A stretch of DNA of 64,000 nt from an uncultured Candidatus Melainabacteria bacterium. Lineage in GTDB: Bacteria > Cyanobacteriota > Vampirovibrionia > Gastranaerophilales > Gastranaerophilaceae. The position numbers and the translations under genes were made by a program. Shown piece after piece: positions 23,552 through 59,076 of the stretch. Each line of letters begins with the position of its first letter. Positions within the stretch are counted from its first letter, which is position 1. The stretch lies in NCBI GenBank assembly GCA_934692625.1, contig CAKUUC010000010.1, forward strand, positions 5,337 through 69,336, read 5' to 3'. A model generated the notes under the pieces. That model saw only the letters and a list, made by a program, of their open reading frames with translations. It did no database searches and had not been told where the DNA came from.

Positions 23552-23630
23552 TAAAACCTCAATTAAATTATACGTGTTTGCACATCTTAATTGAACGTAA
23601 CTATATCTTGTAAAATTTAACGTTTTATTA

Positions 23631-23687
23631 TATAACATGTTGTAAAATATGATATTATACAGCTTATTTACAACATAAGATGTTATA
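23631..23687. promoter_or_regulatory. Inverted repeat in the divergent XRE/SNF2 control region (candidate operator)
   Basis: TATAACATGTTGTAAA (23631-23646) versus TTTACAACAT-AAGAT-GTTATA (23667-23687). Confidence 0.35.
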
Positions 23688-23706
23688 TTTAAGAGGTAAA
23701 TAATAA

Positions 23707-26700: not shown

Positions 26701-26961
26701 GATTTGATGCGCAAACTTGGCAAACAAAATCCAGAGCCAAATAGTGAATTATGCAAAATATTTAATCAAGAAACACAAGATGGCAAAAATATGGGTAAAT
26801 ATTCAAAACTTTTGGAAGAAACAATTTGCTCAATTATTGACGTAAAAGATGAAAGTGATTTTGAAAGTTTGTTTTCTACTGGCGAAAGTTCTTATATGAA
26901 AAACACTATTTCTGGACTTGATGACTTTGAACTCATTTGTTTTTTGGTAGTAAAGGAGTAA
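23707..26961 (+). CDS. SNF2-family helicase with extra N-terminal (PLD-like/unknown) region
   Basis: 1084 aa, TTG start after AAGAGG. Motif I ADSVGLGKT, motif II VIDESHNFRN, SATPVNN, and helicase-C motifs DCISEGQNLQ and HWNPVRIIQRFGRIDRIGS. Confidence 0.9.
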   Translation: MEVIDNINNILKDDLATTIKPNSKVSIASACFSIYAYKELKKQLESIDELRFIFTSPAFVKERTPKTQREFYIPRLSREKSLYGTEYEIKLRNELTQRSIAKECAEWIKRKVKFKSNITNEQMSGFINVESDDTYTYLPVNGFTTTDIGCEKGNTLTNIVTRFETPQSQTFLKTFDTIWNDKTKLQDVTEQIIESISTVYKENSGEFIYFITLYNIFNEFLQDISEDNLPNDATGYKNSVIWNKLFDFQKDACLAIINKLETYNGCILADSVGLGKTFTALSVIKYYENRNKSVLVLCPKKLSNNWVMYKSNYLNNPLANDRLRYDVLYHTDLSREKGFSNGLDLSLINWGNYDLIVIDESHNFRNGGDIKDDKENRYLRLMNRVIRSGVQTKVLMLSATPVNNRFNDLKNQLQLAYEGDTRKIDSKLNTKKPINVIFRQAQQAFNEWSKLPADERTTECLLNMLDFDFFELLDSVTIARSRKHIEKYYDTSSIGKFPTRLPVISLRPPLTENTERINYNQIYEHISALNLKIYMPSLFIFPSKEAKYYDVEAKQANIKSSKTGQIGREEGIRRLMSINLLKRLESSVYSFKLTLTRVQQLITSTLQNIENFKTNGTNSNIEVDDYIHPENDFDDDDLNTNLFSIGNKLKIDFNDMDYISWESQLQADLEILNDLIFEIEKISPEEDAKLQKLLTLIINKIEHPINPDNKKVIVFSAFADTAEYLYKHISKYVKENFGIESAMVTGSKDGVTTLSKIKTDLNTVLTYFSPRSKDKDLIYPNDNRQIDILIATDCISEGQNLQDCDYLINYDIHWNPVRIIQRFGRIDRIGSKNDVIQLVNFWPDLTLDEYINLKARVETRMKVTVMTSTGTGADNVLDESEKEDLEYRKRQLQKLQSEVVDIEDMNSGINIMDLGLNEFRLDLLSYMKDNPDVENSPSGLHAIVKGDKELKSGVIYILKNVSNTINIDNQNRLHPFYMVYIADDGEVICNYLQPKSLLDLMRKLGKQNPEPNSELCKIFNQETQDGKNMGKYSKLLEETICSIIDVKDESDFESLFSTGESSYMKNTISGLDDFELICFLVVKE

Positions 26962-26964
26962 AAA

Positions 26965-27615
26965 TTGCTATTTAGTGAAAAGACACAATTAAATAGAATT
27001 ATGCCAAAGGCAAAGTTTATGAAACTTGCAGAACTATCAACACCTGTAAGAGCGGAATTTCAAAACAATGTTGAAAGACTGATTTTGGCAAATATTTTAC
27101 GACAAGAAACTACTAATATCTCAAAAGGTAAAAATGTTCAGGAGATAGATGTTTTTGAATTTTTGCTTAAAGAAAAACATGTGTCTAACAATTTGATAAA
27201 AGAAATTGATGTTGCAATACCTAAATATATTCTTTTCGTTTTCAAGTGTAATAATGCCATTCAACTTGCAATTTCTTATAAAGAGCCTTCTATAAATGAC
27301 AATAAATATAAGGTTATAAAGACCTATAAAACAGAATGGCAAAAACAAGAGGATATAAAGCTTGAAATTACAGGGCTTGACTTAGATGCAGTATATAACA
27401 GTTTTATAACCCAAATAGCAAATGGACAAGTAGAAACAGATGAAACAACAGATATAAAAAGTGCGGTCGAAAAATCTATCAATGTAGAAAAACTTCAAAA
27501 GAAAATTGAAACACTAAAATCCAAAATCCGCAAAGAACCACAATTCAATAAACAACTGATAATGAAAAAAGAATTGAAAGAACTTCAAAAAACATTGGAG
27601 GAAGTACATGGTTAA
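26965..27615 (+). CDS. DUF4391-like protein
   Basis: 216 aa, TTG start after AAGGAG. The pattern IMPKAKF...ILANILRQETTNI...VQEIDVFEFLLKEK...IPKYILFVF matches my memory of DUF4391, which typically follows SNF2 helicases. Confidence 0.65.
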   Translation: MLFSEKTQLNRIMPKAKFMKLAELSTPVRAEFQNNVERLILANILRQETTNISKGKNVQEIDVFEFLLKEKHVSNNLIKEIDVAIPKYILFVFKCNNAIQLAISYKEPSINDNKYKVIKTYKTEWQKQEDIKLEITGLDLDAVYNSFITQIANGQVETDETTDIKSAVEKSINVEKLQKKIETLKSKIRKEPQFNKQLIMKKELKELQKTLEEVHG

Positions 27616-29803: not shown

Positions 29804-31640
29804 GGATATTACTGACGAAAATATAAAAAAGATTTTGGAGTTGTTTCCGAATGTTGCAACTGAGGCGAAAGATGAAAATGGTGAATTAAGAACAGCGATT
29901 GATTTTGATAAACTAAAACAGGAATTGTCAAAAGATGTTGTTGAAGGTGAAGAATGCTATGCTTTTACTTGGGTTGGCAAAAAAGAAGCGATGGTTGAAG
30001 CAAATAGACCAATCAGAAAAACATTGAGACCTTGTAGAGATAAATCATTAAATTGGGAAGATACTGAAAACATCTACATAGAAGGTGATAACCTTGAAGC
30101 TTTAAAACTCTTGCAAGAAAGTTATTTAGGTAAAATCAAAATGATTTATATAGATCCACCTTATAATACAGGAAATGACTTTGTTTATAAAGATAATTTT
30201 ACGCAAGATAAAGATAGTTATAATGAAGAACTCGGCATAAAAGATGAAGATGAAAATAGATTGTTCCAAAATACAGAATCTAACGGAAGATTTCATAGTG
30301 ATTGGTGTTCAATGATATATTCAAGGTTAAAACTTGCAAGGAATTTATTATCAGATGACGGTGTAATTTTTATTTCGATTGATGATAATGAAGTTAGAAA
30401 TTTGAAAAATATATGTGATGAAGTCTTTGGATATGAAAATATAATCTCACAATTTGTGTGGGAAAAGAAAACTTCTGGTGGGCAACACGCACACAATGTT
30501 TTAGATTTCCACGAATATATATTAGCTTATGCAAAATCAATATCTCAAATAATTGAATTTGCTGTGCCTAGAACGAAAAAACAACTAGCATCATTCACTC
30601 AAGAAGATGAATTTGTTAAAGCTAGGGGAAGGTATTTATTAAGTCCATTAAAGTCTTGGTTGGATTATAGAAAAACATTAATTTATGATATAGAATGCCC
30701 AGATGGTTCAATACTTAATACTCAATGGGTTTGTGCGAAAGATACTTTTGAAAAATTAAAATATGAAAATCGAATTGTTTTTAAAAAAAATAATAAAGGT
30801 GAATGGTCTGTTTATAAAAAGCAATATTCAAACGAAGAGGGTGGCTTTGTAAAACCAGCATCGATAATCACTGAGTATGGTCAAACAATGCATGGCAAAA
30901 AAGAAATTAAAGAATTATTTGAAAATAAAGACATAATAAGTTTTCCAAAACCAACCAAATTGATAAAATACCTTTTACAAATGCAAAGCGAGTCAGATAT
31001 AATTCTAGACTTCTTCTCTGGTTCAGCAACTACTGCTCATGCCTGTATGCAACTTAATGCAGAAGATGGCGGAAATCGAAAATTTATTATGGTTCAACTT
31101 CCTGAAAAAACTGATGAAAAATCTGAGGCTTTTAAAGCTGGTTATAAAAACATTTGTGAAATTGGGGAAGAACGTATTAGACGTGCAGGGCAACAGATTC
31201 TGAATCAAGTTCAGAATGACGGTAAAAAGATTGATGTTGGGTTCAGAGTTTTCAAAGTTGATGATACTAACATGAAAGATATATATTATTCACCTAATGA
31301 AACAAACCAAAAACAATTAGGCTTATACGAAAGCAATATCAAAGATGACAGAACTGACGAAGATTTGTTATATGGTTGTTTGTTAGATTGGGGTGTAGAA
31401 TTATCGCTTCCACACAGAGTTGAAATTATTGATGACAAACGTGTTCATATAGTAGATGAAGATGCTCTTGTTGCGTGTTTTGAAGAAAATATTCCAGAAA
31501 GTGTTATTCGTAAAATTGCAGGCATGAAACCATTAAGAGTTGTATTCAGAGATAGTTCATTCAATAGTGACGACAACAAAATCAATGTTGAAGAAATATT
31601 CAAACTTATCACTCCTGATACAAGGGTTAAGGTTATTTAG
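29787..31640 (+). CDS. mod: Type III-like DNA methyltransferase (Mod; beta-class N6A/N4C)
   Basis: DPPYNTG (motif IV) precedes DFFSGSATTAHA (motif I). ATG at 29787 preferred over GTG at 29775. Overlaps the upstream gene. Confidence 0.9.
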   Translation: MRLESKDITDENIKKILELFPNVATEAKDENGELRTAIDFDKLKQELSKDVVEGEECYAFTWVGKKEAMVEANRPIRKTLRPCRDKSLNWEDTENIYIEGDNLEALKLLQESYLGKIKMIYIDPPYNTGNDFVYKDNFTQDKDSYNEELGIKDEDENRLFQNTESNGRFHSDWCSMIYSRLKLARNLLSDDGVIFISIDDNEVRNLKNICDEVFGYENIISQFVWEKKTSGGQHAHNVLDFHEYILAYAKSISQIIEFAVPRTKKQLASFTQEDEFVKARGRYLLSPLKSWLDYRKTLIYDIECPDGSILNTQWVCAKDTFEKLKYENRIVFKKNNKGEWSVYKKQYSNEEGGFVKPASIITEYGQTMHGKKEIKELFENKDIISFPKPTKLIKYLLQMQSESDIILDFFSGSATTAHACMQLNAEDGGNRKFIMVQLPEKTDEKSEAFKAGYKNICEIGEERIRRAGQQILNQVQNDGKKIDVGFRVFKVDDTNMKDIYYSPNETNQKQLGLYESNIKDDRTDEDLLYGCLLDWGVELSLPHRVEIIDDKRVHIVDEDALVACFEENIPESVIRKIAGMKPLRVVFRDSSFNSDDNKINVEEIFKLITPDTRVKVI

Positions 31641-31652
31641 GGAGGCGGAATA

Positions 31653-34600
31653 ATGAAACTTAAATTTAAACATCAAAAATTCCAATCAGACGCAGCCAAA
31701 GCGGTTGTTGATATATTCGCAGGTCAACCTTGTTTTTCTCCAACATCTTATATGATGGATATGGGATTTACCAAATCAGGAGATAACCAAATTAGTCAAA
31801 CATCGTTGCTTAATTATACTGGTTTTTGTAATCACGCAATAGTTCCAAACTTAAACAGAAATATAATCATTGACAACATGCAAAAAATCCAACGATTAAA
31901 CCAACTTGAACCATCAAAAGAAGTTATCAGCGGATTTAACCTAACTGTTGAAATGGAAACAGGTACTGGTAAAACTTATACTTACATAAAAACAATGTTT
32001 GAACTAAACAAACACTACGGTTGGAGTAAATTTATTATCGTAGTTCCTAGTATTGCGATTAGAGAAGGGGTTTACAAATCCTTTAATATTACGCAAGAAC
32101 ATTTTGCGGAAGAATACGGCAAGAAAATAAAATTCTTTATCTACAATTCTAAAAGATTAAACGAAATAGAACAATTCGCAAACGACGGCGGACTTAATGT
32201 AATGATTATCAACTCTCAAGCCTTTAATGCTCGTGGAAAAGATGCTCGTAGAATTTATATGAAGTTAGATAGTTTCCGCAGTAGAAGACCTATTGATGTA
32301 ATTGCAAAAACTAACCCAATCCTTATCATTGATGAACCGCAATCAGTTGAGGGTAAAATAACTAAGGAAAAACTAATTGAGTTTAACCCACTTATTACAC
32401 TTCGATATTCTGCGACTCCAAAAGAAAAATATAATTTGGTTTACAGACTAGATGCGGTAGAAGCTTATAACAAAAAACTTGTCAAAAAAATTGCAGTAAA
32501 AGGTGTTACTATTCAAGGCAGCGATGCAACAAACGGCTATTTATACCTACAAAATATAAATTTGTACAAAGACAAAGCACCAATGGCAAACATTGAATTT
32601 GACCAAAAAGGTACAAACAAAATTCGTAAAAATAGTAAACTTTTAAAAGAAGGTGACAATCTTTATCCTTTATCTGGTGAATTAGACGAGTACAAAAACA
32701 ATTATATTATTACCAAAATTGACGGCAGAGATAACTCCGTAACATTTTTAAACGGAACAAAGATTTTTGTCGGCAATGTCTTAGGCGAAGAAAACGAAGA
32801 CCAAATAAGACGTATTCAAATCCGAGAAACTATACTTGCACATATAGAAAAAGAACGTAAATTGTTTTTCAAAGGTATAAAAGTTTTATCATTATTCTTT
32901 ATTGATGAAGTAGCAAAATATAAGCAATATGATGAATCAAACAACGAACTAAACGGAATTTATGCGGATATGTTTGAAGAAGAATATGAAAATATTATGA
33001 ATGAACTTCAAATAAAATTCGGCGAAGATGATTATATCAGATACCTAAAAGGAATTTCCGCAAAAAGTACACATGCAGGTTATTTCTCAATCGATAAAAA
33101 AAGTAAAAAAATAATCAATTCAACCGAAGATAAAAAAGAAGGTGGTTCAAATGCTGTTGATGCTTTTGATTTAATCATGAGGAACAAAGAAAGATTACTT
33201 AGTTTTGACGAACCTGTTAGATTTATCTTTTCACATTCTGCACTTAGAGAAGGTTGGGATAATCCAAACGTATTCCAAATTTGTACACTTAGAAAAACAA
33301 ACAGCACAGATAAAAAACGTCAAGAAATTGGGCGAGGTTTAAGACTTTGCGTAAACCAAAACGGAGAAAGAATGGATTCTAGCAAACTAGGTGAAACCGT
33401 TCACGATATAAATATTTTAACCGTAATTGCTAATGAAAGTTATGCTAGCTTTACAGAAAAATTACAATCAGAAATTGCTGAAATCACAACCGATAGACCG
33501 CAAGAGGTTAATGAAAAACTATTTGAAGGTAAATTGATTACAAATGCGAATGGCGAAGAACAAACTATTGACATCAATTTAGCGAAAAGAATACACAATT
33601 TATTTATTCGAAACAATTATATTGATGACGATAATAAACTTACAGAAGTTTACTATGAAGCTCAAAAAACAGGAAATATTGCTCTCCCTGAAAACCTTGT
33701 AGGTTATGAAGATTCTATTATAAAAATTGTAGATATGATTTACAACCCAAATACAATGGCTCCTGAAAATTTGAACGAAAGCAAACCTAAACTTGAAATT
33801 GATAAAGAGAAATTAAACAAAAAAGAATTTCAAGAATTGTGGAAAAGAATTAACACAAAAACCGCTTATGTCGTGAATTTTGAAACAAATGAGTTGATAG
33901 AAAAATCAATAAAATCTATTGATAAAAACTTAGCCGTAACAAGGTTGTATTCAGTAATACAAACAGGTTCTATGGATAAAATCGATTCAAAAGAAGCTTT
34001 AGAAAAAGGAACAGCTTTTGATAACGGGAAAATTTACAAAGAAGATATAAAAACCTTACATTGTGGAATTAAATATGACTTAATTGGCAAAATCGTTGAA
34101 GAAACAAAACTTACTCGTAAATCCGTTGTAAAAATTTTACAAGGTATTCACTCAGAAACATTCAACCAATTTAAAATAAACCCAGAAGATTTTATCATTA
34201 AGGTTTCTAATTTGATAAATGAAGAAAAAGCAACTGTTATTATAGAACATATCACATATAACAAGCTGGAAGAAGCTTATCAGACGGATATATTTGCAGA
34301 ACCTGAGATGAAAACAATTACAAACAAAAATTCACTTCCTGTTGAAAAGAATTTGTACAATTATCTTGTATATGATTCTGAAGTTGAAAAAGAATTTGGT
34401 GAAGATTTGGATAAAAACACAGATGTTTCAGTCTATGTAAAACTTCCAAAAGGTTTTTATATTAACACTCCTGTTGGGCATTACAACCCAGATTGGGCAA
34501 TCGCATTTAATGAAGGCTCAGTAAAGCATGTTTATTTTGTTGCAGAAACAAAAGGCTCAATGAGTTCACTACAACTAAAACCTATTGAACAAGCCAAAAT

Positions 34601-34700
34601 AAATTGTGCAAGAGAGCATTTTAAAACGATTAGTTCAGATAGTGTTCAGTATGATGTTGTAGATAATTATCAGGCACTACTTGATAAGGTTATGAGGTAG
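31653..34700 (+). CDS. res: Type III-like restriction enzyme Res subunit (helicase + PD-(D/E)xK nuclease)
   Basis: 1015 aa. METGTGKTYT, IIDEPQ, YSATP, SHSALREGWDNPNVF and the C-terminal YNPDW...FVAETKG nuclease motif. GGGAGG RBS. Confidence 0.9.
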   Translation: MKLKFKHQKFQSDAAKAVVDIFAGQPCFSPTSYMMDMGFTKSGDNQISQTSLLNYTGFCNHAIVPNLNRNIIIDNMQKIQRLNQLEPSKEVISGFNLTVEMETGTGKTYTYIKTMFELNKHYGWSKFIIVVPSIAIREGVYKSFNITQEHFAEEYGKKIKFFIYNSKRLNEIEQFANDGGLNVMIINSQAFNARGKDARRIYMKLDSFRSRRPIDVIAKTNPILIIDEPQSVEGKITKEKLIEFNPLITLRYSATPKEKYNLVYRLDAVEAYNKKLVKKIAVKGVTIQGSDATNGYLYLQNINLYKDKAPMANIEFDQKGTNKIRKNSKLLKEGDNLYPLSGELDEYKNNYIITKIDGRDNSVTFLNGTKIFVGNVLGEENEDQIRRIQIRETILAHIEKERKLFFKGIKVLSLFFIDEVAKYKQYDESNNELNGIYADMFEEEYENIMNELQIKFGEDDYIRYLKGISAKSTHAGYFSIDKKSKKIINSTEDKKEGGSNAVDAFDLIMRNKERLLSFDEPVRFIFSHSALREGWDNPNVFQICTLRKTNSTDKKRQEIGRGLRLCVNQNGERMDSSKLGETVHDINILTVIANESYASFTEKLQSEIAEITTDRPQEVNEKLFEGKLITNANGEEQTIDINLAKRIHNLFIRNNYIDDDNKLTEVYYEAQKTGNIALPENLVGYEDSIIKIVDMIYNPNTMAPENLNESKPKLEIDKEKLNKKEFQELWKRINTKTAYVVNFETNELIEKSIKSIDKNLAVTRLYSVIQTGSMDKIDSKEALEKGTAFDNGKIYKEDIKTLHCGIKYDLIGKIVEETKLTRKSVVKILQGIHSETFNQFKINPEDFIIKVSNLINEEKATVIIEHITYNKLEEAYQTDIFAEPEMKTITNKNSLPVEKNLYNYLVYDSEVEKEFGEDLDKNTDVSVYVKLPKGFYINTPVGHYNPDWAIAFNEGSVKHVYFVAETKGSMSSLQLKPIEQAKINCAREHFKTISSDSVQYDVVDNYQALLDKVMR

Positions 34701-35346: not shown

Positions 35347-36687
35347 TTACTGGCTCATTACTGGCTCACTGATATTCAATTTGTAAATAATGTTTTTATT
35401 TTCTCCAGCCGAAACAAAAATATTTCTATCACATAAAGTCGTAATATCCCTTTTCGCTTGTGCTCGTGAAGCCTCTGTAATTTCTTGGTAGATTTTTGTT
35501 GTAATATACCCTTGTTCTACTACATATTTGATAGCCTTATTTTGTCTTTCATTTAAGCCATTGTATTGTTTGTACATCTGTAGAATAAAACCACCTTGAG
35601 ATGTTTCAAATATTGGAGCTGGAATCCCTTGTTTCAGGCATGCCGTAATCATACGTTTTATACCTGTGCCAAATTGTTCAACATAACCCGCCATATAGAT
35701 AATTTTCATAATCAATGGATTTCTTGACTTTGATGTATGAGATACGGTTAATTTATCAAGAGTTAAACCTCCAAATAAATCCCCAGAGTTATAAATCCAA
35801 ATACTATCTCCGAAAATTTTAATCTGTATTGCTGAACTAAAATCAAAGTAGTCTTTGTGAATAATAGCATTTAAAACAGCTTCTCTCAATGCTGGCAACG
35901 GATAATCCCAAATATCTTCTCTTTGAAATCCTTTAATTTCTGCTCTCATATTTATAAACAATTTCAAAACAGAGTCAACATCTTCAATTTGTTCAAATAA
36001 ATTACCTGTGATATTTTTGTCACTTATAATTACGGATTCATCATCACCCTTAAATAAACCAACCCTAATAGTTGCTGTCGATAGTAATTTTTGTGGATTC
36101 TTGCCAAATAATAAAATTGCTCCATTTGTAAGTTTATTATCAATAATAAGTTCTAATTGAGTCAAAAGGTCGGTTATACTTAACTCTTTTGCTTCTTCTG
36201 GCAATCTTCCCTTATTTGTCGCAAGTTTAACAAATTTTTGAACTGTTTTCTCATCTATATCATCAAGCGTAAAACTATTAGTTATAGAGTCCCAACTTAT
36301 ATCTTTTAATAATAATTTCTTTAGTTCTTCTTTATTTGCTTCTCTTGTCGTGTTTCCAACTCTTTTGTAATACTTATTTTTATAAGCAATAGGCACAGAT
36401 GATTTTTCAACCGTGATTTTTAGAATGTCTTTATCTTCAATATGTAAAAGTTCAACATTTGGTTGAATGCCTGTTAAATCAATAATTTTGTTAGTTAGTG
36501 CCTCTTGTTTTCCATTAGACAAATCAATACCTACAATATTTTTTGTTTCATCTTCAACACCAAGAATAATGCAACCCCCATCAGTATTTGAAAAGGCAGA
36601 AATAGACTTGAATAATCCTTCACTTACTTCTTGTTTATATTCAATAACATTGCATTCATCTAACAAATTTTCTAAATCTTTATTCAT
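35347..36687 (-). CDS. AlbA_2 (Schlafen-like) + HATPase_c_4 + C-terminal wHTH protein (often mis-annotated as RecG-like)
   Basis: VIEYKQEVSEGLFKSISAFSNTDGGCIILGVED is AlbA_2-like. REAVLNAIIHKDY is HATPase_c_4-like. The C-terminal NERQNKAIKYVVEQGYITTKIYQEI is a wHTH. Confidence 0.75.
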   Translation of the reverse strand: MNKDLENLLDECNVIEYKQEVSEGLFKSISAFSNTDGGCIILGVEDETKNIVGIDLSNGKQEALTNKIIDLTGIQPNVELLHIEDKDILKITVEKSSVPIAYKNKYYKRVGNTTREANKEELKKLLLKDISWDSITNSFTLDDIDEKTVQKFVKLATNKGRLPEEAKELSITDLLTQLELIIDNKLTNGAILLFGKNPQKLLSTATIRVGLFKGDDESVIISDKNITGNLFEQIEDVDSVLKLFINMRAEIKGFQREDIWDYPLPALREAVLNAIIHKDYFDFSSAIQIKIFGDSIWIYNSGDLFGGLTLDKLTVSHTSKSRNPLIMKIIYMAGYVEQFGTGIKRMITACLKQGIPAPIFETSQGGFILQMYKQYNGLNERQNKAIKYVVEQGYITTKIYQEITEASRAQAKRDITTLCDRNIFVSAGENKNIIYKLNISEPVMSQ

Positions 36688-36693
36688 ACCTGT

Positions 36694-36722
36694 ATTATAC
36701 CAAAGATTTTAGCCGCAAGCAA
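36694..36722 (-). promoter_or_regulatory. Promoter giving a leaderless or near-leaderless AlbA_2 mRNA
   Basis: Minus strand: TTGCTT, 17 nt, TATAAT, then only 6 nt (ACAGGT) before the ATG at 36687. No RBS. Confidence 0.45.
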
Positions 36723-37399: not shown

Positions 37400-40393
37400 T
37401 TATGCAGACAGTGTGAAGATTTCGTAAATCTCTTCGTCTGTAAGTTCTGTAATAATCTTTTCACCTTCGTAAACTGCCAAGTCTGCAAGTTCTTTTTTAG
37501 ACTTAAGCATTTCATCAATTTTTTCTTCAAAGGTTCCAAGTGTTATCATACGGTGTACCATTACGTTTTTATCTTGTCCAATACGATATGTACGGTCTGT
37601 TGCTTGATCTTCAACTGCAGGGTTCCACCACAAGTCGTAGTGAATAACGTTTGTTGCGCTGGTTAAGTTCAAACCTGTTCCACCTGCTTTTAGTGACAAT
37701 ATCATAACCTTGTATTGGTCTTCTGTTTGAAATTTTTCAATAAGTTCTTCACGTTGAGCAACTGTCAAACTTCCATGGAAGAACAATGGTTCAGTGTTGC
37801 ATTCTTGTGAAATTACTTTGCACAATATATCGCCCATTTCCTTGTATTGTGTGAAAATAAGCGTTTTTTCGTCATTATCGATAATGTTTTGAACCAAATC
37901 CAAACATTTTTCCATTTTACCGGACAATTCTCTGCCCATATCGCCTGATTTTAGGAATTGATAAGGGTGGTTACAAATTTGTTTAAGTGCTGTAATAAGT
38001 TTGAAGATGTTTCCACGTCTGTTAACTCCGGTAAATCCGCTAATTTTGGTCATCATTTCATTAAGAGTTTTTTCATAAAGAACTGCTTGAACCTTAGACA
38101 AGTAGCAGTATTCGTTGAGTACCATTTTTTCCGGCAAGTCGGAAATTACGTTTTTATCAGTTTTCAAACGTCTTAAGACAAACGGAGAGATTGACATTCT
38201 CAATTTGCCGGCTCTTGAATGTTCTTTAAATCTTTCGATAGGAATTGCATAACTTTTTTGGAATTCTCTCAATGAGCCCAAGTAACCTTTGTTGATAAAG
38301 TCGAAAATGCTCCACAATTCTGTTAATCTGTTTTCAACCGGTGTACCTGTCATTGCAATTTTTACATCTGATTTTAACATTTTGATAGCCAAAGTTTGTG
38401 CTGTGTCAGGGTTTTTGATGTTTTGGGCTTCATCAACAATAATCATACTCCAACCCTGTTTTTTGAGTTCTTCGACATCTATTCTCATTATTGCGTAAGT
38501 TGTTAAAATTACATCGTGATTAACATCGAGTTTTCTGTCTGCTCCGTGATAAATTACTGCATCAATTTCAGGGGCAAAAAGTTGAAGTTCTTTCATCCAG
38601 TTCCCCATAAGAGTTGTTGGACAAATTACTAAAACCGGTTTTTTCAAGCGGTTTTCTTCCTTCATTTTTAGGATTAAACTTATAACCTGAATTGTTTTAC
38701 CTAATCCCATATCATCGGCAATACATGCACCAAAACCTTTGACTATATTTGTCCATAACCATCTCAAACCGATTTCTTGATAAGGTCTTAATTCACCTTT
38801 CAGGCCTTTTGGTAATGTCATTTCTACAGGTTTTGTAAAGTCAGAGAGAACTCTTGCAAATGCTGCATCGTAGTCAAATTCATATTGATCAAGTTGACCT
38901 GATAATGATGCATGGATAAGTTCCATTCGTGACATAGATTTAAGGTTAGATTTTGCAATTTGTTCAAAAATCTTTTTGCCTTCTTCTTTGTCAACCAAAA
39001 CGTATTTATTTTTGTATTTGATTAGACCGTTGTTATTATCAAGTAATTTTTGGTATTCTTCCAAAGAAATTTTTTCATTTCCAATGGCAATTTCATAAGA
39101 AAATTCCAAGATATCGTCTAGTGATACTTTTGATGCGGAAGTATTGTTATTGATTAAGTTTGCTAAATCTTCCGAGCGGGATTCTTTTACTTTTGCATTG
39201 ATAGAAGCTCTCGGGATAACAATATTTTGCAATGCTTCTGGCAAAATAACTTCAATTTGTGCTTTTTGAAGATAGTATGTAGTTTGAGTAATGATTTTAT
39301 ATACTTCATTCAAATTCAAATCTAAGTATAATTTGTCTTCATCTTCAAAAACTTGTTCAAGTTCCGGCATATAGCGCAAAGCGTAATTCAATTGTTTTTC
39401 AACAATTCTTGAAATATCAGATGCTTTTGCTCCAAATACTTCATCTTCTGTATACAGACTGTCAATTAAGACACTTTCGTCAGTTTTTCTATTTTTGATA
39501 TAGACTTTTAGTCTAAACATATCATCATCTGCGTTTTCAATTTTGAAAAACGGAATTACGTCGTATTTACCCAAATATAGTTCATCAAACCACTGAGCGA
39601 AACTTTCTGCGTAATCTTTACCTTTGATAACTGCTTTTTGTTCTAAATCTTTTAATAAGTATTGACCAGATTTTACATCTTTAAATCTATACATTTTTAT
39701 GCCTAAAAATTTATAAATTACATAATTTAAGTATGTATAAATAAATTCATAGACAAAGTTTTTAGGAATTTCACCATCGATAAACAAATCTTCCGGCATG
39801 CATTCTTCAAATTGGTTGACAATTCTTGCCATTTTTGAATTGTTGATAATTGGTTCATAAACAATTCGGAACATTTGTCCGTAACGTTTGACTGTTGGAA
39901 TGAAATACAATTTTTCAATCAATTTCATAACAAAGTATGTCAATTTATTCAAATAGATAAATGTTGGTGATAAATCGGCTAAATCTACAATGTTTCCAAA
40001 TCCGCCAAAGTAGTCCATAATAATGTCCCAAGCCATAAAGTATCCGACTTCATCTTTGAAAACTTCTGACTTAAATCTGAATAATGAGCCTTTTGATTTT
40101 AAATAATATTGAAAATTGTTTGTTGGAGTAACAAAAAAGGATAGGTTATTTTTGTATGATAATTTAGAAGGTTTGTTTATCAAATAGAAATTTGTGTTAC
40201 GAGTAGGAGCGTTTGGGCTCAAAAATACACCGGCAAATTCGTCTTCAATGATTTGGTATATCATACTCAACGTGTAACGAAAATCTTTGTTTTTGAAATG
40301 TTCCGGATTTTCACTCAGGTTAAAAAATAACTCATCTACGTTGTTCTTTTTGAACGAAAAATCAATGTTTAAATCTTCTATTTTGTTACTCAT
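37400..40393 (-). CDS. SNF2-family helicase (chromosomal, RapA/YwqA-like)
   Basis: 997 aa. ADDMGLGKT, IVDEAQNIKN, MTGTPVEN, helicase-C LKAGGTGLNLT and WWNPAVEDQATDRTYRIGQ. Confidence 0.9.
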   Translation of the reverse strand: MSNKIEDLNIDFSFKKNNVDELFFNLSENPEHFKNKDFRYTLSMIYQIIEDEFAGVFLSPNAPTRNTNFYLINKPSKLSYKNNLSFFVTPTNNFQYYLKSKGSLFRFKSEVFKDEVGYFMAWDIIMDYFGGFGNIVDLADLSPTFIYLNKLTYFVMKLIEKLYFIPTVKRYGQMFRIVYEPIINNSKMARIVNQFEECMPEDLFIDGEIPKNFVYEFIYTYLNYVIYKFLGIKMYRFKDVKSGQYLLKDLEQKAVIKGKDYAESFAQWFDELYLGKYDVIPFFKIENADDDMFRLKVYIKNRKTDESVLIDSLYTEDEVFGAKASDISRIVEKQLNYALRYMPELEQVFEDEDKLYLDLNLNEVYKIITQTTYYLQKAQIEVILPEALQNIVIPRASINAKVKESRSEDLANLINNNTSASKVSLDDILEFSYEIAIGNEKISLEEYQKLLDNNNGLIKYKNKYVLVDKEEGKKIFEQIAKSNLKSMSRMELIHASLSGQLDQYEFDYDAAFARVLSDFTKPVEMTLPKGLKGELRPYQEIGLRWLWTNIVKGFGACIADDMGLGKTIQVISLILKMKEENRLKKPVLVICPTTLMGNWMKELQLFAPEIDAVIYHGADRKLDVNHDVILTTYAIMRIDVEELKKQGWSMIIVDEAQNIKNPDTAQTLAIKMLKSDVKIAMTGTPVENRLTELWSIFDFINKGYLGSLREFQKSYAIPIERFKEHSRAGKLRMSISPFVLRRLKTDKNVISDLPEKMVLNEYCYLSKVQAVLYEKTLNEMMTKISGFTGVNRRGNIFKLITALKQICNHPYQFLKSGDMGRELSGKMEKCLDLVQNIIDNDEKTLIFTQYKEMGDILCKVISQECNTEPLFFHGSLTVAQREELIEKFQTEDQYKVMILSLKAGGTGLNLTSATNVIHYDLWWNPAVEDQATDRTYRIGQDKNVMVHRMITLGTFEEKIDEMLKSKKELADLAVYEGEKIITELTDEEIYEIFTLSA

Positions 40394-40473
40394 ATTTTTA
40401 CCTTTATAAAGTTTGTTTGGGTGATAAATTTAATAAGCGGATAGATTAAAAAATCTATCCGCTTTTAGTATAT

Positions 40474-54413: not shown

Positions 54414-55331
54414 ATGAATAAGAATTATATTTTTATAGGAATTGCTGGAATAATTTCTCTTTATGCTGTTTTATGTTTGGTATCTCAACCGTTTGCAAAT
54501 GTTGTGTTGTCAACTATTATTGTTTTGGGTGGCATATTAGGTACGTTATTTTTTGTATTCCAAAGACAACTTTATCAGTTTAGTATAAATTTTACGCCGG
54601 TAGAATTTAGACTTGGTCAAAATGCCTTGAGAAATCAAAATTGTATGGTTCAATATTTCCCAAATGAAAAGCTTATTGTTATGGATAATCTCGGAGATAA
54701 TACTATTGGAAAAAGAACTTTTACGGTAAAAAAAGCAACTGTAGATGTTGATAAATATTGGTTTAAAATTTGCAGAATTTTCAATAAGTATGCTACACTT
54801 GATTCTCTAGCGGCATTTTGCAGACGTGGCACTCCAGTTGATATTATAACCTTGTCACCGGCGAAAAAAGTGCAAGAAGCGGCTCCAAAGAAGAAAGTTG
54901 TTGATAGTTCTCTTTATAACAAAATTCCTGAAGCGAACAGACCTCAAGTAAAAATGCCTGAGATTGCAAGCTTTAATGAATTATCTCAACCTCAACATGT
55001 TACAAAGGCTGAAGATGAAGCAACATATAATGAAGACTTCTTGAATTTGAGTGATATTATGCAGCAATCAACTGCAAAAATAAATATTAATACAGCAACC
55101 GCCAGTGAAATCTCCGTTTTACCTGGTATCAATATTGCGATTGCTAAAAGAGTTGTTGAATATAGAGATTTGAACGGTGGGTTTAAATCTATTGATGAAT
55201 TTTTACAAGTTGCCGAAGTTAAAGAACATTTCATTCCAAAGATAAAGGAAATGATTGCTATTGACGGAGCATCTCAAAACAACAATTCTGCCATTGAAAA
55301 ACAGAATGAAGGTCGACTTTTGGATTGGTAA
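54414..55331 (+). CDS. ComEA-like membrane protein with C-terminal helix-hairpin-helix DNA-binding domain
   Basis: Two N-terminal TM segments. C-terminal ININTATASEISVLPGINIAIAKRVVEYRDLNGGFKSIDEF. Confidence 0.75.
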   Translation: MNKNYIFIGIAGIISLYAVLCLVSQPFANVVLSTIIVLGGILGTLFFVFQRQLYQFSINFTPVEFRLGQNALRNQNCMVQYFPNEKLIVMDNLGDNTIGKRTFTVKKATVDVDKYWFKICRIFNKYATLDSLAAFCRRGTPVDIITLSPAKKVQEAAPKKKVVDSSLYNKIPEANRPQVKMPEIASFNELSQPQHVTKAEDEATYNEDFLNLSDIMQQSTAKININTATASEISVLPGINIAIAKRVVEYRDLNGGFKSIDEFLQVAEVKEHFIPKIKEMIAIDGASQNNNSAIEKQNEGRLLDW

Positions 55332-55936
55332 TGCTAGACCTGTATAAAATAATTCCGCAAACTGAAGTTGAAGGACCGAATAAACGATTTTGCATTTGGG
55401 TACAAGGATGTAAAAAGCATTGTGTAGGGTGTTGGGCAAAAGAAACTTGGGAGTTTGGAATTGGTAAAAATTACTCGGTTGAAGAACTTTTTCAGCTTAT
55501 AAAGGCGCAAAAAGATATTGAAGGTGTAACTTTTCTTGGTGGAGAACCGTTTGAACAAGCCGAAAACCTTTCAAAACTTGCGCAAAAAGTAAAAGAAATT
55601 GGCTTGTCAGTTGTTTGTTTTACCGGTTATACAATAGAGGAGTTACGAAATAAAAATTCTTCTGCAATAACAGCACTTTTAGAAAATATTGATTTACTTA
55701 TTGATGGCGGATTTGAAAAAGAAAACTTTGACCTCTCAAGACCTTGGGTTGGCTCATCTAATCAACGTTATATCTTTTTGAGCGATGTTTATTCGCCTGA
55801 TACAATTAAAAAATATACTAACAAGGTAGAGGTTAGAATTTCTCGAGGTGGAAAGTTGGAAATTAACGGTATGGGTGACTTTGAGAAGATTAAAAAAGAT
55901 TTTTATTTACAACTCGGAAAAAATAATGTAGAATAG
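55331..55936 (+). CDS. nrdG: NrdG-family radical SAM activase (anaerobic RNR activating protein-like), no nrdD nearby
   Basis: VEGPNKRFCIWVQGCKKHCVGCWAKETW (CX3CX2C), LGGEPF, FTGYTIEEL and LIDGGF...RPWVGSSNQ all parallel E. coli NrdG. The ATG overlaps the comEA-like stop as TAATG. Confidence 0.75.
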   Translation: MLDLYKIIPQTEVEGPNKRFCIWVQGCKKHCVGCWAKETWEFGIGKNYSVEELFQLIKAQKDIEGVTFLGGEPFEQAENLSKLAQKVKEIGLSVVCFTGYTIEELRNKNSSAITALLENIDLLIDGGFEKENFDLSRPWVGSSNQRYIFLSDVYSPDTIKKYTNKVEVRISRGGKLEINGMGDFEKIKKDFYLQLGKNNVE

Positions 55937-55961
55937 ATACGGAAAAAGAGAGTTTACAACT

Positions 55962-57581
55962 ATGGATAATAAAATTGTAATGCAGTTATCAAGACTGTTC
56001 AGGGCAAGATTTCCTTATGTTTACATTACAACATGGGAAGAAGAACGTGCAATAAATTTAATCAAGAAAATTGCGAGTTCACAAAATCTTATAAAAGTTA
56101 CTCGAGATGTATATATTTGGACACAAACAAAAGGTTTTACATTAAACGGTAACCTTATCGAAGGCACAACCAGTCCTGACAAAGCATTGGATTTTATCAG
56201 AAATTGCAATAAAAATGCTATTTTTATAATGTGTGATTTTCATGTTTATTTTGGTGTCAAAGGTCGACAGGTAGATTATAATGTCGTGAGAAAAATTCGT
56301 GACAGTATTTCTGATATTAAAACCAGTTCCTTCAGAAAGAATGTTATATTTATGGCTCCGGAACTAATTATTCCCGAAACAATGCAAAAAGAAGTTTCGA
56401 TTATTGATTTGCCATTGCCAACGCTTGACGAAATTAAAGCCAAATTAGAAAAAATGATTGCGCAAAATAGTCAAATTGATACGTCAGGACTTAACGAAGA
56501 AGTCAAAGAAAAACTTTGCAAAGCGGCATTGGGTTTGACATTGCAAGAGGCTGAAAATGCTTTTGCGCTAGCGATGGTAAATGATGGTTGTATTGATGAA
56601 AGAGATTTGAGTGTAATATTGGAACAAAAAATTCAGGTTATCAGAAAAACAGGAATTTTGGATTACATAAACACAAATATTCAGATTAGTGATGTTGGTG
56701 GACTTGAAAATTTGAAAAATTGGCTCAATAAAAGAAATAATTCTTGGTCTGAATCGGCTAAAAAATATTGTCTTCCGGCGCCGAAAGGTGTTCTGATTAC
56801 AGGGGTTCCTGGATGTGGTAAAAGTTTGACAGCAAAGGCAATGAGTGCTGCGTGGCAATTACCGTTGCTTAAACTCGATTTTGGTAAGATTTTCTCAGGA
56901 ATTGTTGGTAGTTCTGAGGAAAATATGCGAAAAGCAATCAAAACTGCAGAAGCGGTTTCCCCATCAATTCTTTGGGTCGATGAAATTGAAAAAAGTTTGA
57001 GCGGATTAAATTCAAACGGTGATAGTGGGACTTCTTCAAGAATTTTTGGAACATTTTTAACTTGGATGCAAGAAAAAACTGCACCGGTATTTGTAATTGC
57101 AACTGCGAATAATATCGAAGGTTTGCCGCCTGAACTCCTTAGAAAAGGGCGTTTTGATGAAATTTTCTTTGTTGATTTACCGACAAAAAAAGAACGTATT
57201 GAAATCTTTAAACTTCACCTTTCAAAACGTTTGAAAGATAAAGAAGTTGCAAGCAAACTGGAATTGAATGACGAATTGTTTGAAAAACTTGCAGATTTAA
57301 CAGAAGGTTTTGTGGGTGCAGAAATTGAACAGGCTGTTATAAGTGCGTTATATGAGGCATTTTTCCAAAAGAAACCGTTAGAATTTCAAGATTTGGAAAA
57401 TGTAATAAAAACAATTGTTCCACTTACAAAAACTCAAAAAGAAAAAATCCTACAATTAAGACAGTGGGCAAATATTCGTGCAGTTACGGCAACAAAACGA
57501 GATGATATGGAACAGTACAATCTCGGCGATGATAACAAAGATATAAACAGCTCTCGAGGTGGCAGAGCGCTAGATGTATAA
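55962..57581 (+). CDS. AAA+ ATPase, Ycf46-like architecture
   Basis: N-terminal roughly 250-aa non-ATPase domain (FPYVYITTWEEERA, IFIMCDFHVYF, IIDLPLPTLDEI) plus one AAA module (GVPGCGKS, ILWVDEIEK, ATANNIEGLPPELLRKGRFDE). Confidence 0.85.
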   Translation: MDNKIVMQLSRLFRARFPYVYITTWEEERAINLIKKIASSQNLIKVTRDVYIWTQTKGFTLNGNLIEGTTSPDKALDFIRNCNKNAIFIMCDFHVYFGVKGRQVDYNVVRKIRDSISDIKTSSFRKNVIFMAPELIIPETMQKEVSIIDLPLPTLDEIKAKLEKMIAQNSQIDTSGLNEEVKEKLCKAALGLTLQEAENAFALAMVNDGCIDERDLSVILEQKIQVIRKTGILDYINTNIQISDVGGLENLKNWLNKRNNSWSESAKKYCLPAPKGVLITGVPGCGKSLTAKAMSAAWQLPLLKLDFGKIFSGIVGSSEENMRKAIKTAEAVSPSILWVDEIEKSLSGLNSNGDSGTSSRIFGTFLTWMQEKTAPVFVIATANNIEGLPPELLRKGRFDEIFFVDLPTKKERIEIFKLHLSKRLKDKEVASKLELNDELFEKLADLTEGFVGAEIEQAVISALYEAFFQKKPLEFQDLENVIKTIVPLTKTQKEKILQLRQWANIRAVTATKRDDMEQYNLGDDNKDINSSRGGRALDV

Positions 57582-57596
57582 GAAAGGTAAAATTCA

Positions 57597-58856
57597 ATGT
57601 CAATAACACTGATGGCATATCCTATGGCATTTTTGATAGCACCGGAAAAGGCTCCAAAAGAACACCTTAGAGAAAAAAAAGGCTCCTGCAATAATAATTC
57701 AAAGTTGGCAATGAAAAATCTTAAATTTATAAGAGTTTTGTCTAATATTACTTTTAATGAATTTAGAATTATTGTATCAAGACTTGATGTAAAACCATTA
57801 CATGACAATTGTTTGTATGAGATTAATACAGGGTTAGAAATTGAACCGCTTGTTGAAGGTAAGTTTGTAACATTCAAGCTTTCTGGAACTGCGAATGCTC
57901 ATTCTTTACAAACATCTTCTGAAAATTTTTTTAAAGAATTAGATGCCATAACAGGTAGAAATGTTCGTCTGCTCGGTGGACAGGAAATTTTTTATTATAA
58001 CTATACGACTGATTATCAAAAAGCGTCTGATATTTACAAGAGTTTAAAAGACGGGAATGCAAGTCAAATTTTCACGACTGAGAATGACGAAATTGTTGCA
58101 AATTTGAATAATCAGAGCGTAAAATATTACAAAAATGAATTTAGTCCATTTTATTTTTTGGAAGTTGAACAAAAAATTAGTATTATGAATATCGGAATGG
58201 ACGATGCTTCTGGGCAGTATGCAACTTACGGACTTACCAATTTAAAAATTCAAACCAATATTAAAGTTGCAGAATTGAAAAAACTTTTGCTCAAAGCAGG
58301 TTATGATTTATATTTGGCAAACGGGCAAACTCCGCTAAAAAATAATTATGTAACATTGAATTGGGTTGACCAAGATGGGTATTATGTTGCAGAGTTTTCC
58401 GGACAAAATAATAATGCTATAACTCGAGAAGCAGAAGAAATTTTTAGAAAATTGAATATTGCTGCAGGTAGGGATTTGCGTTCGATAAACGACACAACGA
58501 CAACTATTTATACATACAATACCAATTATACTGATAAAGGTGTTCTGTTAAATACTCTATATGAACACGGGGCAGAAGAAATGGTTGAAGAAGGCGAAAC
58601 TATCACTTGTAAATTGTTTGGTATGGAAATGAAGTATTATAAACAAGATTCAGGCGCTTATGCTCTTGATATAACACAAATTTCTGATACTACACAGTGC
58701 GAAGGAGTTTTGAATGATTTGAATCAAGAATATGGAATGAACTTGCAAGAAATAACTTATAACAAAATTAAAGAACGTTTAGAACAAGAAAATTTGCACC
58801 TTGAAAGTGAAACTGTACTTGATGATAATTCGATAGTTTTGACGATTGAGATTTAA
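57597..58856 (+). CDS. Uncharacterised protein made of two tandem roughly 150-aa repeats (possibly DUF1257/Ycf35-related)
   Basis: Residues 41-192 align with 215-361 (FKLSG/AEFSG, ENFFKELDAITGRNVR/EEIFRKLNIAAGRDLR, VKYYKNEFSPFYFLEVEQ/MKYYKQDSGAYALDITQ). GAAAGG RBS. Confidence 0.6.
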   Translation: MSITLMAYPMAFLIAPEKAPKEHLREKKGSCNNNSKLAMKNLKFIRVLSNITFNEFRIIVSRLDVKPLHDNCLYEINTGLEIEPLVEGKFVTFKLSGTANAHSLQTSSENFFKELDAITGRNVRLLGGQEIFYYNYTTDYQKASDIYKSLKDGNASQIFTTENDEIVANLNNQSVKYYKNEFSPFYFLEVEQKISIMNIGMDDASGQYATYGLTNLKIQTNIKVAELKKLLLKAGYDLYLANGQTPLKNNYVTLNWVDQDGYYVAEFSGQNNNAITREAEEIFRKLNIAAGRDLRSINDTTTTIYTYNTNYTDKGVLLNTLYEHGAEEMVEEGETITCKLFGMEMKYYKQDSGAYALDITQISDTTQCEGVLNDLNQEYGMNLQEITYNKIKERLEQENLHLESETVLDDNSIVLTIEI

Positions 58857-58866
58857 GAGGATTTGA

Positions 58867-59076
58867 ATGGGCAAGATTAAAATAAAATTACTTCCTGATG
58901 GAACGATACAAATGGATACAGAAGGCATTAAAGGTGCAAAATGCGCAGATTATGCCAAAGTTTTTCAGCGCTTGACTGATGCAAAGATTTACCAACTGAA
59001 AAAAACAGAAGAGTACTACCAACAAGAAATTCTTGAGGCAGAAGAAACAGAAGAGTTGAAAAATACAGAGTATTAA
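58867..59076 (+). CDS. DUF2997-like small protein
   Basis: 69 aa. MGKIKIKLLPDGTIQMDTEGIKGAKCADYAKVFQ...TEEYY matches my memory of the DUF2997 consensus. GAGGA RBS. Confidence 0.6.
   Translation: MGKIKIKLLPDGTIQMDTEGIKGAKCADYAKVFQRLTDAKIYQLKKTEEYYQQEILEAEETEELKNTEY

Follow-up and report, generated by a model that had tools for sequence, protein, structure and literature searches.

A Ycf46-like AAA+ ATPase operon with a radical-SAM enzyme and a shared C-terminal tail motif in an uncultured Gastranaerophilales bacterium

Genes and proteins of the operon

A contig of an uncultured Candidatus Melainabacteria bacterium of the Gastranaerophilales (CAKUUC010000010.1, assembly GCA_934692625.1) carries, within the stretch of 64,000 nucleotides analyzed here and called the window (contig positions 5,337 to 69,336, forward strand), an operon of five co-directional genes, which encode a helix-hairpin-helix (HhH) protein, a radical S-adenosylmethionine (SAM) enzyme, a Ycf46-like AAA+ ATPase, a duplicated protein of 419 amino acids (aa), and a small DUF2997 protein (Table 1). 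Comparison with homologous loci suggests that this operon is a derived version of a Ycf46-type AAA+ module. A first-pass annotation had described the last four of these genes as a unit at 55331–59076 with spacers of 25, 15, and 10 nt; the open reading frame (ORF) listing bears out the common + strand orientation and the spacing, and the four genes were placed exactly, but the unit begins one gene earlier, at 54414. The TAA stop codon of this additional gene runs into the ATG start of the radical-SAM gene at 55331 (TAATG overlap), and an in-frame TTG lies ahead of that ATG at 55325. A scan for promoters and terminators gave counts near the shuffled expectation and was uninformative. Homologous loci were obtained by scanning species-representative genomes for the ATPase, which gave at least 592 relatives, of which the best 80 were kept; ORFs were called in all loci, a hidden Markov model (HMM) was used for each partner, and the neighbor proteins were clustered.

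The ATPase is matched by Pfam AAA over residues 277–405 (4e-29) and by AAA_lid_3, and phrog_8638 matches it over its full length (1.8e-142). Its motifs start at residues 281 (Walker A, GVPGCGKS), 337 (Walker B, LWVDE), 380 (ATAN), and 396 (the GRFD arginines), and the Walker A, Walker B, sensor-1, and arginine-finger residues are invariant across 61 homologues, while no P-loop or Walker A motif was found in residues 1–235. The AAA module is close to VAT and to p97 D2 (phmmer E ~1e-48 to 1e-53). An AlphaFold2 model built with the 61 homologues (predicted local distance difference test score, pLDDT, 78.9) consists of an alpha/beta domain with a helical lid at about residues 1–230, the AAA module at 233–519, and a C-terminal stretch, residues 521–539, that is disordered in the monomer (pLDDT < 50). 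In Foldseek searches the full model superposes on the D1-D2 tandem of p97/Cdc48, Rix7, Afg2, and NVL, with template modeling (TM) scores of 0.62–0.66, E ~1e-23, and about 560 aligned columns. On the strength of this predicted model, the ATPase may be read as p97-like, its D1 degenerate and its D2 active.

The D1-D2 fold is thus what the predicted ATPase has in common with p97/VCP/Cdc48, Rix7/NVL, and Afg2, but there are also clear differences. The window protein lacks the double-psi-barrel N-domain of p97 and starts straight at the D1-like domain, the Walker A motif has been lost from this domain, pore loop 1 has the sequence G-I-V-G, and the DUF1257-like and DUF2997 partners are unrelated to UBX, Ufd1, and Npl4; the NCBIfam CDC48 model scores 114.7 against a cut-off of 802.65. 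The flexible C-terminal tail of p97 is a cofactor-docking motif, and the window ATPase also has such a tail, although its motif, R-x-h-[D/E]-Φ, differs from HbYX. Another similarity is to IetAS/SgiAT, which have a similar AAA module; the window ATPase, however, has another N-terminal domain and other partners, the PADLOC IetA and NCBIfam IteA models match its generic AAA part only (IetA: residues 264–504), and no IetS serine protease was found in the operon or its neighbors. Matches on IncC/SGI1 plasmids are ATPases of the SgiA/IetA type and were set aside as irrelevant.

There is no Ycf46 model in Pfam or NCBIfam, and membership was judged via cyanobacterial homologues and not via slr0374 itself. 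Homologues of full length occur in Limnofasciculus, a cyanobacterium (46%), in Sericytochromatia (46%), and on cyanobacterial plasmids (36–43%), and the N-terminal motifs RARYP.IY..[ST]WEE.R and DFH are shared. The assignment made at first, an N-terminal signature of the Ycf46 family followed by one AAA module, stands in the sense of a tightly conserved family with a specific N-terminal domain that includes cyanobacterial and Sericytochromatia proteins (43–46%, full length), with no alignment to slr0374 behind it.

The HhH protein, which heads the operon, matches the ComEA models in its HhH region only (50.4 vs 152.35 for TIGR01259 and 43.9 vs 53.1 for TIGR00426). With ComEA it has in common an N-terminal membrane anchor and a C-terminal HHH_3 domain; however, it falls below both model cut-offs, its N-terminal part is variable, and its R-x-h-D-Φ tail is of the kind found on the ATPase. 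Plasmid homologues are labeled 'helix-hairpin-helix domain-containing protein' by the Prokaryotic Genome Annotation Pipeline (PGAP). The N-termini of the family contain membrane segments, a TPR/zinc ribbon part, a GYF domain, or nothing recognizable, and 9 of 62 members are without a membrane segment by hydropathy, a count too crude to fix topology, so that the HhH domain and the tail would be cytoplasmic at least in those. Clustering places the protein next to the ATPase in 46 genome loci, and detection by the tail motif adds more.

The tail R-x-h-[D/E]-Φ-COOH is common to the ATPase (RGGRALDV) and the HhH protein (EGRLLDW), and it is strongly conserved in both families. Among 59 ATPase tails the successive positions are R (89%), G (96%), G (96%), R (96%), T/A, L/I/V, D/E (97%), and F/V/L, and R-h-h-D-Φ ends 60 of 62 HhH proteins, with R at -5 and D at -2 both at 100%. 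When the 9733 ORFs of all loci are considered, 154 end in R-x-[LIVM]-[DE]-Φ, where two or three would be expected by chance on a rough residue-frequency estimate; these are 65 ATPases, 60 HhH proteins, and 29 others, mostly further HhH proteins or ATPase neighbors. In the window, only the HhH protein and the ATPase carry the motif among 219 ORF segments.

Tail-bearing proteins are multiplied in some loci. A sheep-rumen metagenome-assembled genome (MAG), RGIG6874, has six tandem HhH paralogues of 87–233 aa before the radical-SAM gene, all ending ERxhD[LI] (L060:1-8000), and several other loci have two or three copies. On a phage-like IMG/VR contig (3300034196_000067, L030:1339-9161), three unrelated proteins near a homologous ATPase end in KRIVE[LV], which suggests that the phage versions may use their own variant of the C-terminal tag. 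Both the RGIG6874 paralogues and the KRIVE[LV] ends fit the idea of a portable tag.

The radical-SAM enzyme is matched by Fer4_12 and Radical_SAM, and the NCBIfam model that fits it best, TIGR02491 (NrdG), gives 124.5 bits where the cut-off is 126.1; two other radical-SAM proteins of the module score 118.6 and 73.7, both below. With NrdG/PflA it has in common the Fer4_12 domain, the radical-SAM core, and the CxxxCxxC and GGE motifs (GCKKHCVGC and FLGGEPF in the window copy), both of which are found in 62 of 62 family members. It differs in falling below the NrdG cut-off, in a C-terminal extension absent from canonical NrdG, and in being genetically tied to an AAA+ ATPase with no glycyl-radical enzyme encoded nearby. 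The extension, of about 55 residues after GSxNQR, is common to the bacterial radical-SAM proteins of the module, with the consensus FLTDRY...NK[IV]E[IV]R[IV]..DG.[IV].[IV]NGMGDF, and is lacking in the canonical phage NrdGs of loci L008 and L010, which were not counted as module members on account of their canonical NrdG C-termini. PGAP labels the plasmid homologues '4Fe-4S single cluster domain-containing protein'.

As the first-pass annotation had stated, the enzyme has no nrdD partner in the window: neither nrdD, nor an NrdD-like ORF, nor an R[VIT]xG[YFW] motif in an ORF of at least 200 aa was found in the 64 kb. A search by motif and for large ORFs likewise found no plausible glycyl-radical enzyme in the flanks of about 120 related loci. 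Whether the enzyme belongs to the module had been left open; co-occurrence in the neighborhoods (see below), the NrdG scores below cut-off, the extension, and the absence of a neighboring nrdD indicate that it is a module component and not a stray nrdG.

A hairpin-like pattern is common to the radical-SAM extension, NKVEVRISRGGKLEING (55775–55933), and the start of the DUF2997 protein, KIKIKLLPDGTIQMDTEG (58867–58960). In an hhalign comparison, the extension and the DUF2997 N-terminal hairpin align with 84% probability (E = 7.5e-6) over 19 columns only, and this faint likeness is to be taken as a lead, not as a result. The RGG in the window extension (RISRGGKLEI) was considered as a third copy of the tail and dropped, as the family mostly has DG there.

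For the 419-aa protein no match was found in Pfam (E <= 0.1), NCBIfam, PHROGs, or PADLOC, and its 228 close homologues, all of about 420 aa, likewise carry no Pfam domain; conservation is highest in the C-terminal half. Its duplication, proposed at the outset, is borne out by a half-against-half BLASTP match (residues 100–192 vs 272–362, E = 0.007) and by the repeat order of the AlphaFold2 model, in which four beta-alpha-beta4(-alpha) units form two repeats (residues 42–195 and 213–364), followed by a long helix and a hairpin. In Foldseek, the model retrieved only matches with low TM scores from the PDB and viral libraries, to beta-alpha-beta4 repeat folds like those of TBP and AdoMetDC; these are suggestive of a fold class, not of a function.

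A profile search of 1.84 billion representative proteins returned 397 relatives, of which about five clusters are of full length. The many relatives of 150–190 aa align to profile positions of about 300–420, and those of 240–260 aa to 215–420. That the short relatives align there and few clusters are of full length marks the last unit as the ancestral core and the 419-aa form as an expansion specific to a lineage.

Its relation to DUF1257/Ycf35 was assessed with three alignments: the family of the window protein (A1), the short relatives (A2, n = 117), and a DUF1257 set of small proteins that adjoin homologous ATPases in phage-like contigs (A3, 13 of 13 verified by Pfam). None of the 117 short relatives matches Pfam DUF1257 (PF06868) at E <= 0.01, and two intermediate proteins reach 15–17 bits against a threshold of 22.2. 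In hhalign, however, A3 and A2 align over the whole domain (95.3% probability, E = 2.4e-8, 106 columns), and A2 is tied to the window family by HMMER with E down to ~1e-27. The conclusion rests on this A3–A2 comparison and not on an iterative search, one seed of which (L016, 128 aa) was a poor choice. Because A3 and A1 compared directly give only 31% probability, we treat the window protein as a divergent homologue, outside the Pfam DUF1257 family: its C-terminal unit is, by these profile comparisons, a remote homologue of DUF1257/Ycf35, and the likeness that the first reading had glimpsed at its C-terminus is real but remote.

Ycf35 proteins have an 'MSH' N-terminal signature (PMC13060386). 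The 419-aa protein begins with MSI, and in the 117 short relatives M1 and S2 are conserved to at least 90%; however, the DUF1257-like unit lies about 60 residues away from this N-terminus. The family also keeps a hydrophobic N-terminal peptide, in the window MSITLMAYPMAFLIAPE (57597–57650), and together with the Met-Ser start this recalls the Ycf35 start (PMC13060386).

The identification of the 69-aa protein as DUF2997 proved correct, with 35.7 bits on PF11211 against a gathering score of 24.1 (residues 4–51 to model positions 1–47). A cysteine is present in 68 of 68 family members, exactly one in 56 of them, and the exact G..G..C pattern occurs in 60 of 68. Apparent DUF2997 fusions of 233–235 aa and a 362-aa version of the duplicated protein in Actinobacteria were rejected as ORF-calling artefacts of high-GC DNA, with internal M(S)… starts, and so provide no Rosetta-stone evidence.

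Table 1. Positions of the five genes and of their domains and tails in the window
Feature	Position	Strand	Characteristics
HhH protein (fifth module gene), 305 aa	54414..55331	+	N-terminal hydrophobic (membrane) segments, ComEA-type HhH domain, tail ...NEGRLLDW
HhH (HHH_3) domain of the HhH protein, residues 220-279	55071..55250	+	Pfam HHH_3 1.6e-17
C-terminal tail R-L-L-D-W of the HhH protein	55314..55328	+	R at -5, D at -2, aromatic last residue
Radical-SAM enzyme, NrdG/PflA glycyl-radical-activase type, 201 aa from ATG	55331..55936	+	Fer4_12 9e-37
C-terminal extension of the radical-SAM enzyme, about residues 149-201	55775..55933	+	Family-specific, outside the NrdG model
Ycf46-like AAA+ ATPase, 539 aa	55962..57581	+	Pfam AAA and AAA_lid_3; phrog_8638
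Predicted N-terminal D1-like pseudo-ATPase domain of the ATPase, residues 1-233	55962..56660	+	AlphaFold2 secondary structure; without Walker A
Active classical AAA module of the ATPase, with lid	56661..57518	+	Walker A, Walker B, ATAN, GRFD motifs
C-terminal tail RGGRALDV of the ATPase	57555..57578	+	Predicted disordered in the monomer
Duplicated protein, 419 aa	57597..58856	+	N-terminal peptide MSITLMAYPMAFLIAPE, two tandem two-unit repeats, C-terminal helix and hairpin
Repeat 1 of the duplicated protein, residues 42-195	57720..58181	+	Two beta-alpha-beta4 units; AlphaFold2 secondary structure, BLASTP
Repeat 2 of the duplicated protein, residues 213-419	58233..58853	+	Part in common with 240-260-aa relatives
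Divergent DUF1257/Ycf35-like unit of the duplicated protein, about residues 300-419	58494..58853	+	Part in common with 150-190-aa relatives
DUF2997 protein, 69 aa	58867..59076	+	PF11211; single family cysteine in GIKGAKC

Distribution and relation to ycf46 and ycf35

Among the best 80 relatives, the closest ATPases are from Candidatus Gastranaerophilales MAGs (80–85%), followed by other Gastranaerophilales/Melainabacteria (62–65%), Firmicutes, including Neobacillus, Paenibacillus, Clostridium botulinum, and Romboutsia (56–62%), and Actinobacteria (46–53%). Further hosts are Absconditabacterales, a Tannerellaceae MAG, Omnitrophota, Sericytochromatia, and one cyanobacterium (46%); homologous ATPases occur in phages as well. 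The ATPase is 80–86% identical between species, and relatives in which it reaches 81–86% have a 419-aa partner of only 56–66% identity. In Gastranaerophilales, the operon has aroA upstream and def-fmt downstream across species and is probably vertically inherited.

Co-occurrence was counted in the 54 genome loci that have flanks of 4 kb or more on both sides. All five features are present in 38 of them, from Gastranaerophilales, Firmicutes, Actinobacteria, and other phyla. The ATPase tail is present in 41, and among those a radical-SAM gene is found in 39, another tail-bearing protein in 38, a DUF1257-like protein in 40, and DUF2997 in 40; ATPases without the tail mostly stand alone or in three-gene loci, and the presence of the tail correlates with the partner genes. 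The order of the genes varies between Gastranaerophilales, Firmicutes, and Actinobacteria: the HhH, radical-SAM, ATPase, 419-aa-type, and DUF2997 genes may stand in this order; the HhH and radical-SAM genes may follow ATPase, 419-aa-type, and DUF2997; the order may be radical-SAM, 419-aa-type, HhH, ATPase, DUF2997; or DUF2997 may precede HhH, radical-SAM, ATPase, and 419-aa-type. The module genes recur beside the ATPase in dozens of genomes across phyla, far more than chance would bring about. Their constant content in a variable order speaks for a functional link and is hard to put down to inherited synteny alone. Independently, PGAP lists the same five products on a megaplasmid of B. cereus (NZ_CP106676) and on the Paenarthrobacter plasmid pYJN5-1. 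In a neighbor-joining tree, a crude one with no bootstrap support, the tail-bearing ATPases of five-gene loci form one clade, with solo and three-gene ATPases outside it and those of phages further out.

Some loci depart from this picture in host or in content. MAGs labeled as archaea (Methanomethylophilaceae, Methanobacteriaceae, and 'archaeon'; loci L054, L075, L103, and L082) carry loci 53–80% identical to the bacterial module, one of them (L054) with the same synteny as the window, and mis-binning is the probable cause. In Limnofasciculus (L106:7387-9569) and on a Treponema succinifaciens plasmid (L135:3869-6024), an ATPase that has no tail is immediately preceded by a radical-SAM gene, and no DUF1257-like protein was detected next to the pair. 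Near the former, the HMM finds a DUF2997-like region in a 153-aa ORF; beside the latter, the annotation shows no DUF2997 and calls the next gene 'phage baseplate assembly protein V'.

The link to cyanobacteria is provided by plasmids on which PGAP annotates DUF1257, DUF2997, and AAA proteins together, without a radical-SAM or HhH gene. On the Pseudanabaena galeata plasmid pPg_01 (L133:1-5012), an Hsp70-family gene and the gene of an 'ATP-binding protein' lie in among these three, an arrangement that hints at further variants of the module. In cyanobacteria, ycf46 lies in a three-gene operon that is strongly stress-induced in a ppGpp-dependent manner (PMC7496141; bioRxiv 10.1101/2025.07.21.665879) and that responds to iron limitation and oxidative stress (PMC7496141; bioRxiv 10.1101/2025.07.21.665879), although the domains of the partners are not named (PMC7496141). 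A DUF2997-DUF1257(ycf35)-fed7 cluster is conserved in cyanobacteria (PMC4284462), and ycf35 and ycf46 are among four plastid genes that are absent from most freshwater red algae, with the same pattern of presence and absence (PMC5940233). In two neighborhoods of matches to the Sericytochromatia homologue, neither DUF1257 nor DUF2997 was found; these matches carried generic names only.

Compared with the cyanobacterial and plastid ycf46 operon (Synechocystis slr0373-slr0374-slr0376; Synechococcus Synpcc7942_0416-0418), the window module has an ATPase of the same family, as judged via homologues and not via slr0374, but adds the radical-SAM and HhH genes and the RGGRxh[D/E]Φ tail on the ATPase. 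Its relative of Ycf35/DUF1257 is duplicated to 419 aa and too divergent for Pfam, and its host is non-photosynthetic; the biochemical function is obscure in both. The occurrence in Firmicutes, Actinobacteria, candidate phyla, and phages agrees with the general, non-photosynthetic role that the first-pass annotation had proposed. What that annotation had not noted is that a fifth gene heads the operon, that two of the proteins share a C-terminal tail, and that the ATPase is predicted to have a p97-like D1-D2 architecture. No description of a five-gene module was found in the searchable papers that mention DUF2997 or DUF1257, and it seems not to have been described before.

Elsewhere in the window, a low-GC stretch (to 25% GC; 21105–34697) is flanked by a phage-type integrase (21105–21944, - strand) and encodes an SNF2-like helicase (23707–26958), a DUF4391 protein (26962–27612), an AAA_13 protein (27578–29800), an N6/N4 DNA methylase (29775–31637), and a type III Res-like endonuclease (31641–34697). 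It looks like a mobile restriction/defence island, distinct from the five-gene module. Just past it, on the - strand, lie a Schlafen/AlbA_2 and HATPase_c_4 protein (35350–36708) and an SNF2 helicase with DUF3670 (37403–40429).

Proposed mechanism and rival explanations

The reading that we favor, and hold to be somewhat the better bet as a whole, is that of a Ycf46-type five-gene operon with a Cdc48-like remodeler, docking of tails, and an integral radical-SAM enzyme. The ATPase would be a hexameric, Cdc48-like protein remodeler, with the DUF1257-like and DUF2997 proteins as its cofactors. The common tail would be a short linear motif through which its carriers, the ATPase included, dock at a single common site, and this docking may tether the ATPase to membrane or DNA, or regulate it. 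The radical-SAM enzyme would be an integral subunit and not a ribonucleotide-reductase activase; it might modify a component, for which the tails are the best candidates, or tie activity to redox or SAM status. With the cyanobacterial operon as an analogue, the module probably serves in stress-linked protein remodeling and not in photosynthesis. A more specific version, in which the radical-SAM enzyme acts on the C-terminal tails, for example by C-alpha hydrogen abstraction in the near-invariant Gly-Gly of the ATPase RGGR so as to yield a glycyl radical, an epimer, or a cleavage site, is speculative and, in our estimate, unlikely. If it were true, radical chemistry would act as the switch of a p97-like unfoldase and of the clients that bear the tail, which would amount to an oxygen- or redox-sensitive post-translational control of an AAA+ machine and might explain the stress behavior of Ycf46. 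To our knowledge, control of an AAA+ machine by radical chemistry is without precedent.

Several points weigh against the favored reading. Hexamer formation, the cofactor roles, and tail docking are all drawn by analogy. Pore loop 1 of the ATPase, G-I-V-G, is without the usual aromatic residue, which makes processive threading uncertain. For the 419-aa protein, the model reaches moderate quality (pLDDT 68), Foldseek matches it with low TM scores, and the link to DUF1257 is an indirect one. The radical-SAM enzyme lies 1.6 bits under the NrdG cut-off, very near a true NrdG, and the search for nrdD covered the window and related flanks only. Finally, the Fisher p values for co-occurrence (2e-3 to 5e-5) ignore kinship, although many loci are close relatives, and some tail-bearing ATPases (L065 and L112) lack a radical-SAM or HhH gene within 6 kb.

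The near-cut-off NrdG score would be accounted for if only the ATPase, the 419-aa protein, and the DUF2997 protein formed a module, with an ordinary nrdG and an ordinary comEA adjoining by coincidence, and the match of the HhH protein to ComEA HhH models and the canonical NrdGs near the ATPase in phages L008 and L010, probably parts of nucleotide-metabolism clusters, point the same way. However, the radical-SAM enzyme and the tail-bearing HhH protein recur in 38–39 of the 41 tail-positive loci, across phyla and in different orders, no nrdD neighbor was found in the window or the related flanks, and the radical-SAM extension is module-specific. The HhH protein has nothing of the rest of ComEA, falls below both cut-offs, and shares its tail with the ATPase. 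In addition, the hosts include Microbacterium, Arthrobacter, and Dactylosporangium, which are aerobes in which a class III ribonucleotide reductase is not expected, and we consider mere coincidence highly improbable. A functional alternative is that the ATPase with the DUF1257-like and DUF2997 proteins acts as a chaperone in the maturation or repair of iron-sulfur or radical enzymes (cf. MoxR/CbbQ-type activases), with the radical-SAM enzyme as its client and, in cyanobacteria, the ferredoxin Fed7, encoded beside the DUF2997-DUF1257 pair. This explanation draws on the conserved DUF2997-DUF1257(ycf35)-fed7 cluster (PMC4284462), the reaction of the ycf46 operon to iron limitation and oxidative stress (PMC7496141; bioRxiv 10.1101/2025.07.21.665879), the cysteine kept in all 68 DUF2997 members, the weak likeness of the radical-SAM extension to the DUF2997 hairpin, and the pairs of radical-SAM enzyme and ATPase alone in Limnofasciculus (L106) and on the Treponema plasmid. 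We regard it as unlikely nevertheless, for it leaves the HhH protein and the shared tail unexplained, three-gene modules with no Fe-S protein nearby are common (phages, Omnitrophota, cyanobacterial plasmids), and the ATPase is p97-like, of the classical clade, and not of the MoxR type.

An anti-phage or conflict system, in which the HhH protein would sense foreign DNA, the ATPase transduce the signal, and the radical-SAM enzyme act as effector by way of a toxic or modified nucleotide, in the manner of viperin, also seems improbable to us. Its appeal lies in the patchy distribution outside Melainabacteria, with megaplasmid copies beside insertion sequence elements, toxin-antitoxin, and RloB-type genes, in the variable gene order, in the multiplied HhH paralogues with their variable N-termini, in the homologous ATPases of phages and a satellite, and in PADLOC matches, those of IetA to the AAA module and weak ones of pVip to the radical-SAM enzyme. 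There is, however, no system-level match in PADLOC, and the likeness to IetA is generic to AAA proteins and comes without the IetS protease. The context in Gastranaerophilales is a stable housekeeping one (aroA, def-fmt), and an ATPase identity of 80–86% between species is unusually conservative for a defence gene. The integrase-flanked, low-GC restriction island of the window is about 20 kb off, with the module outside it, and the cyanobacterial ycf46 relatives behave as a core stress operon (PMC7496141).

Significance for the Ycf46 family

Ycf46 and Ycf35 have been conserved plastid and cyanobacterial ORFs without a mechanism for decades. The p97-like architecture of the ATPase, with a predicted inactive D1 ahead of D2, points to protein remodeling, and the non-photosynthetic relatives, among them culturable Bacillus, Paenibacillus, Clostridium, and Arthrobacter strains and plasmids, offer a defined and clonable five-gene module. 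Since a portable C-terminal motif appears to mark the partners of the ATPase, candidate clients and adaptors can be listed from sequence. Furthermore, an enzyme of the glycyl-radical-activase type that is tied to an AAA+ unfoldase, with no glycyl-radical enzyme near, is unusual, and suggests a new job for this radical-SAM subfamily.

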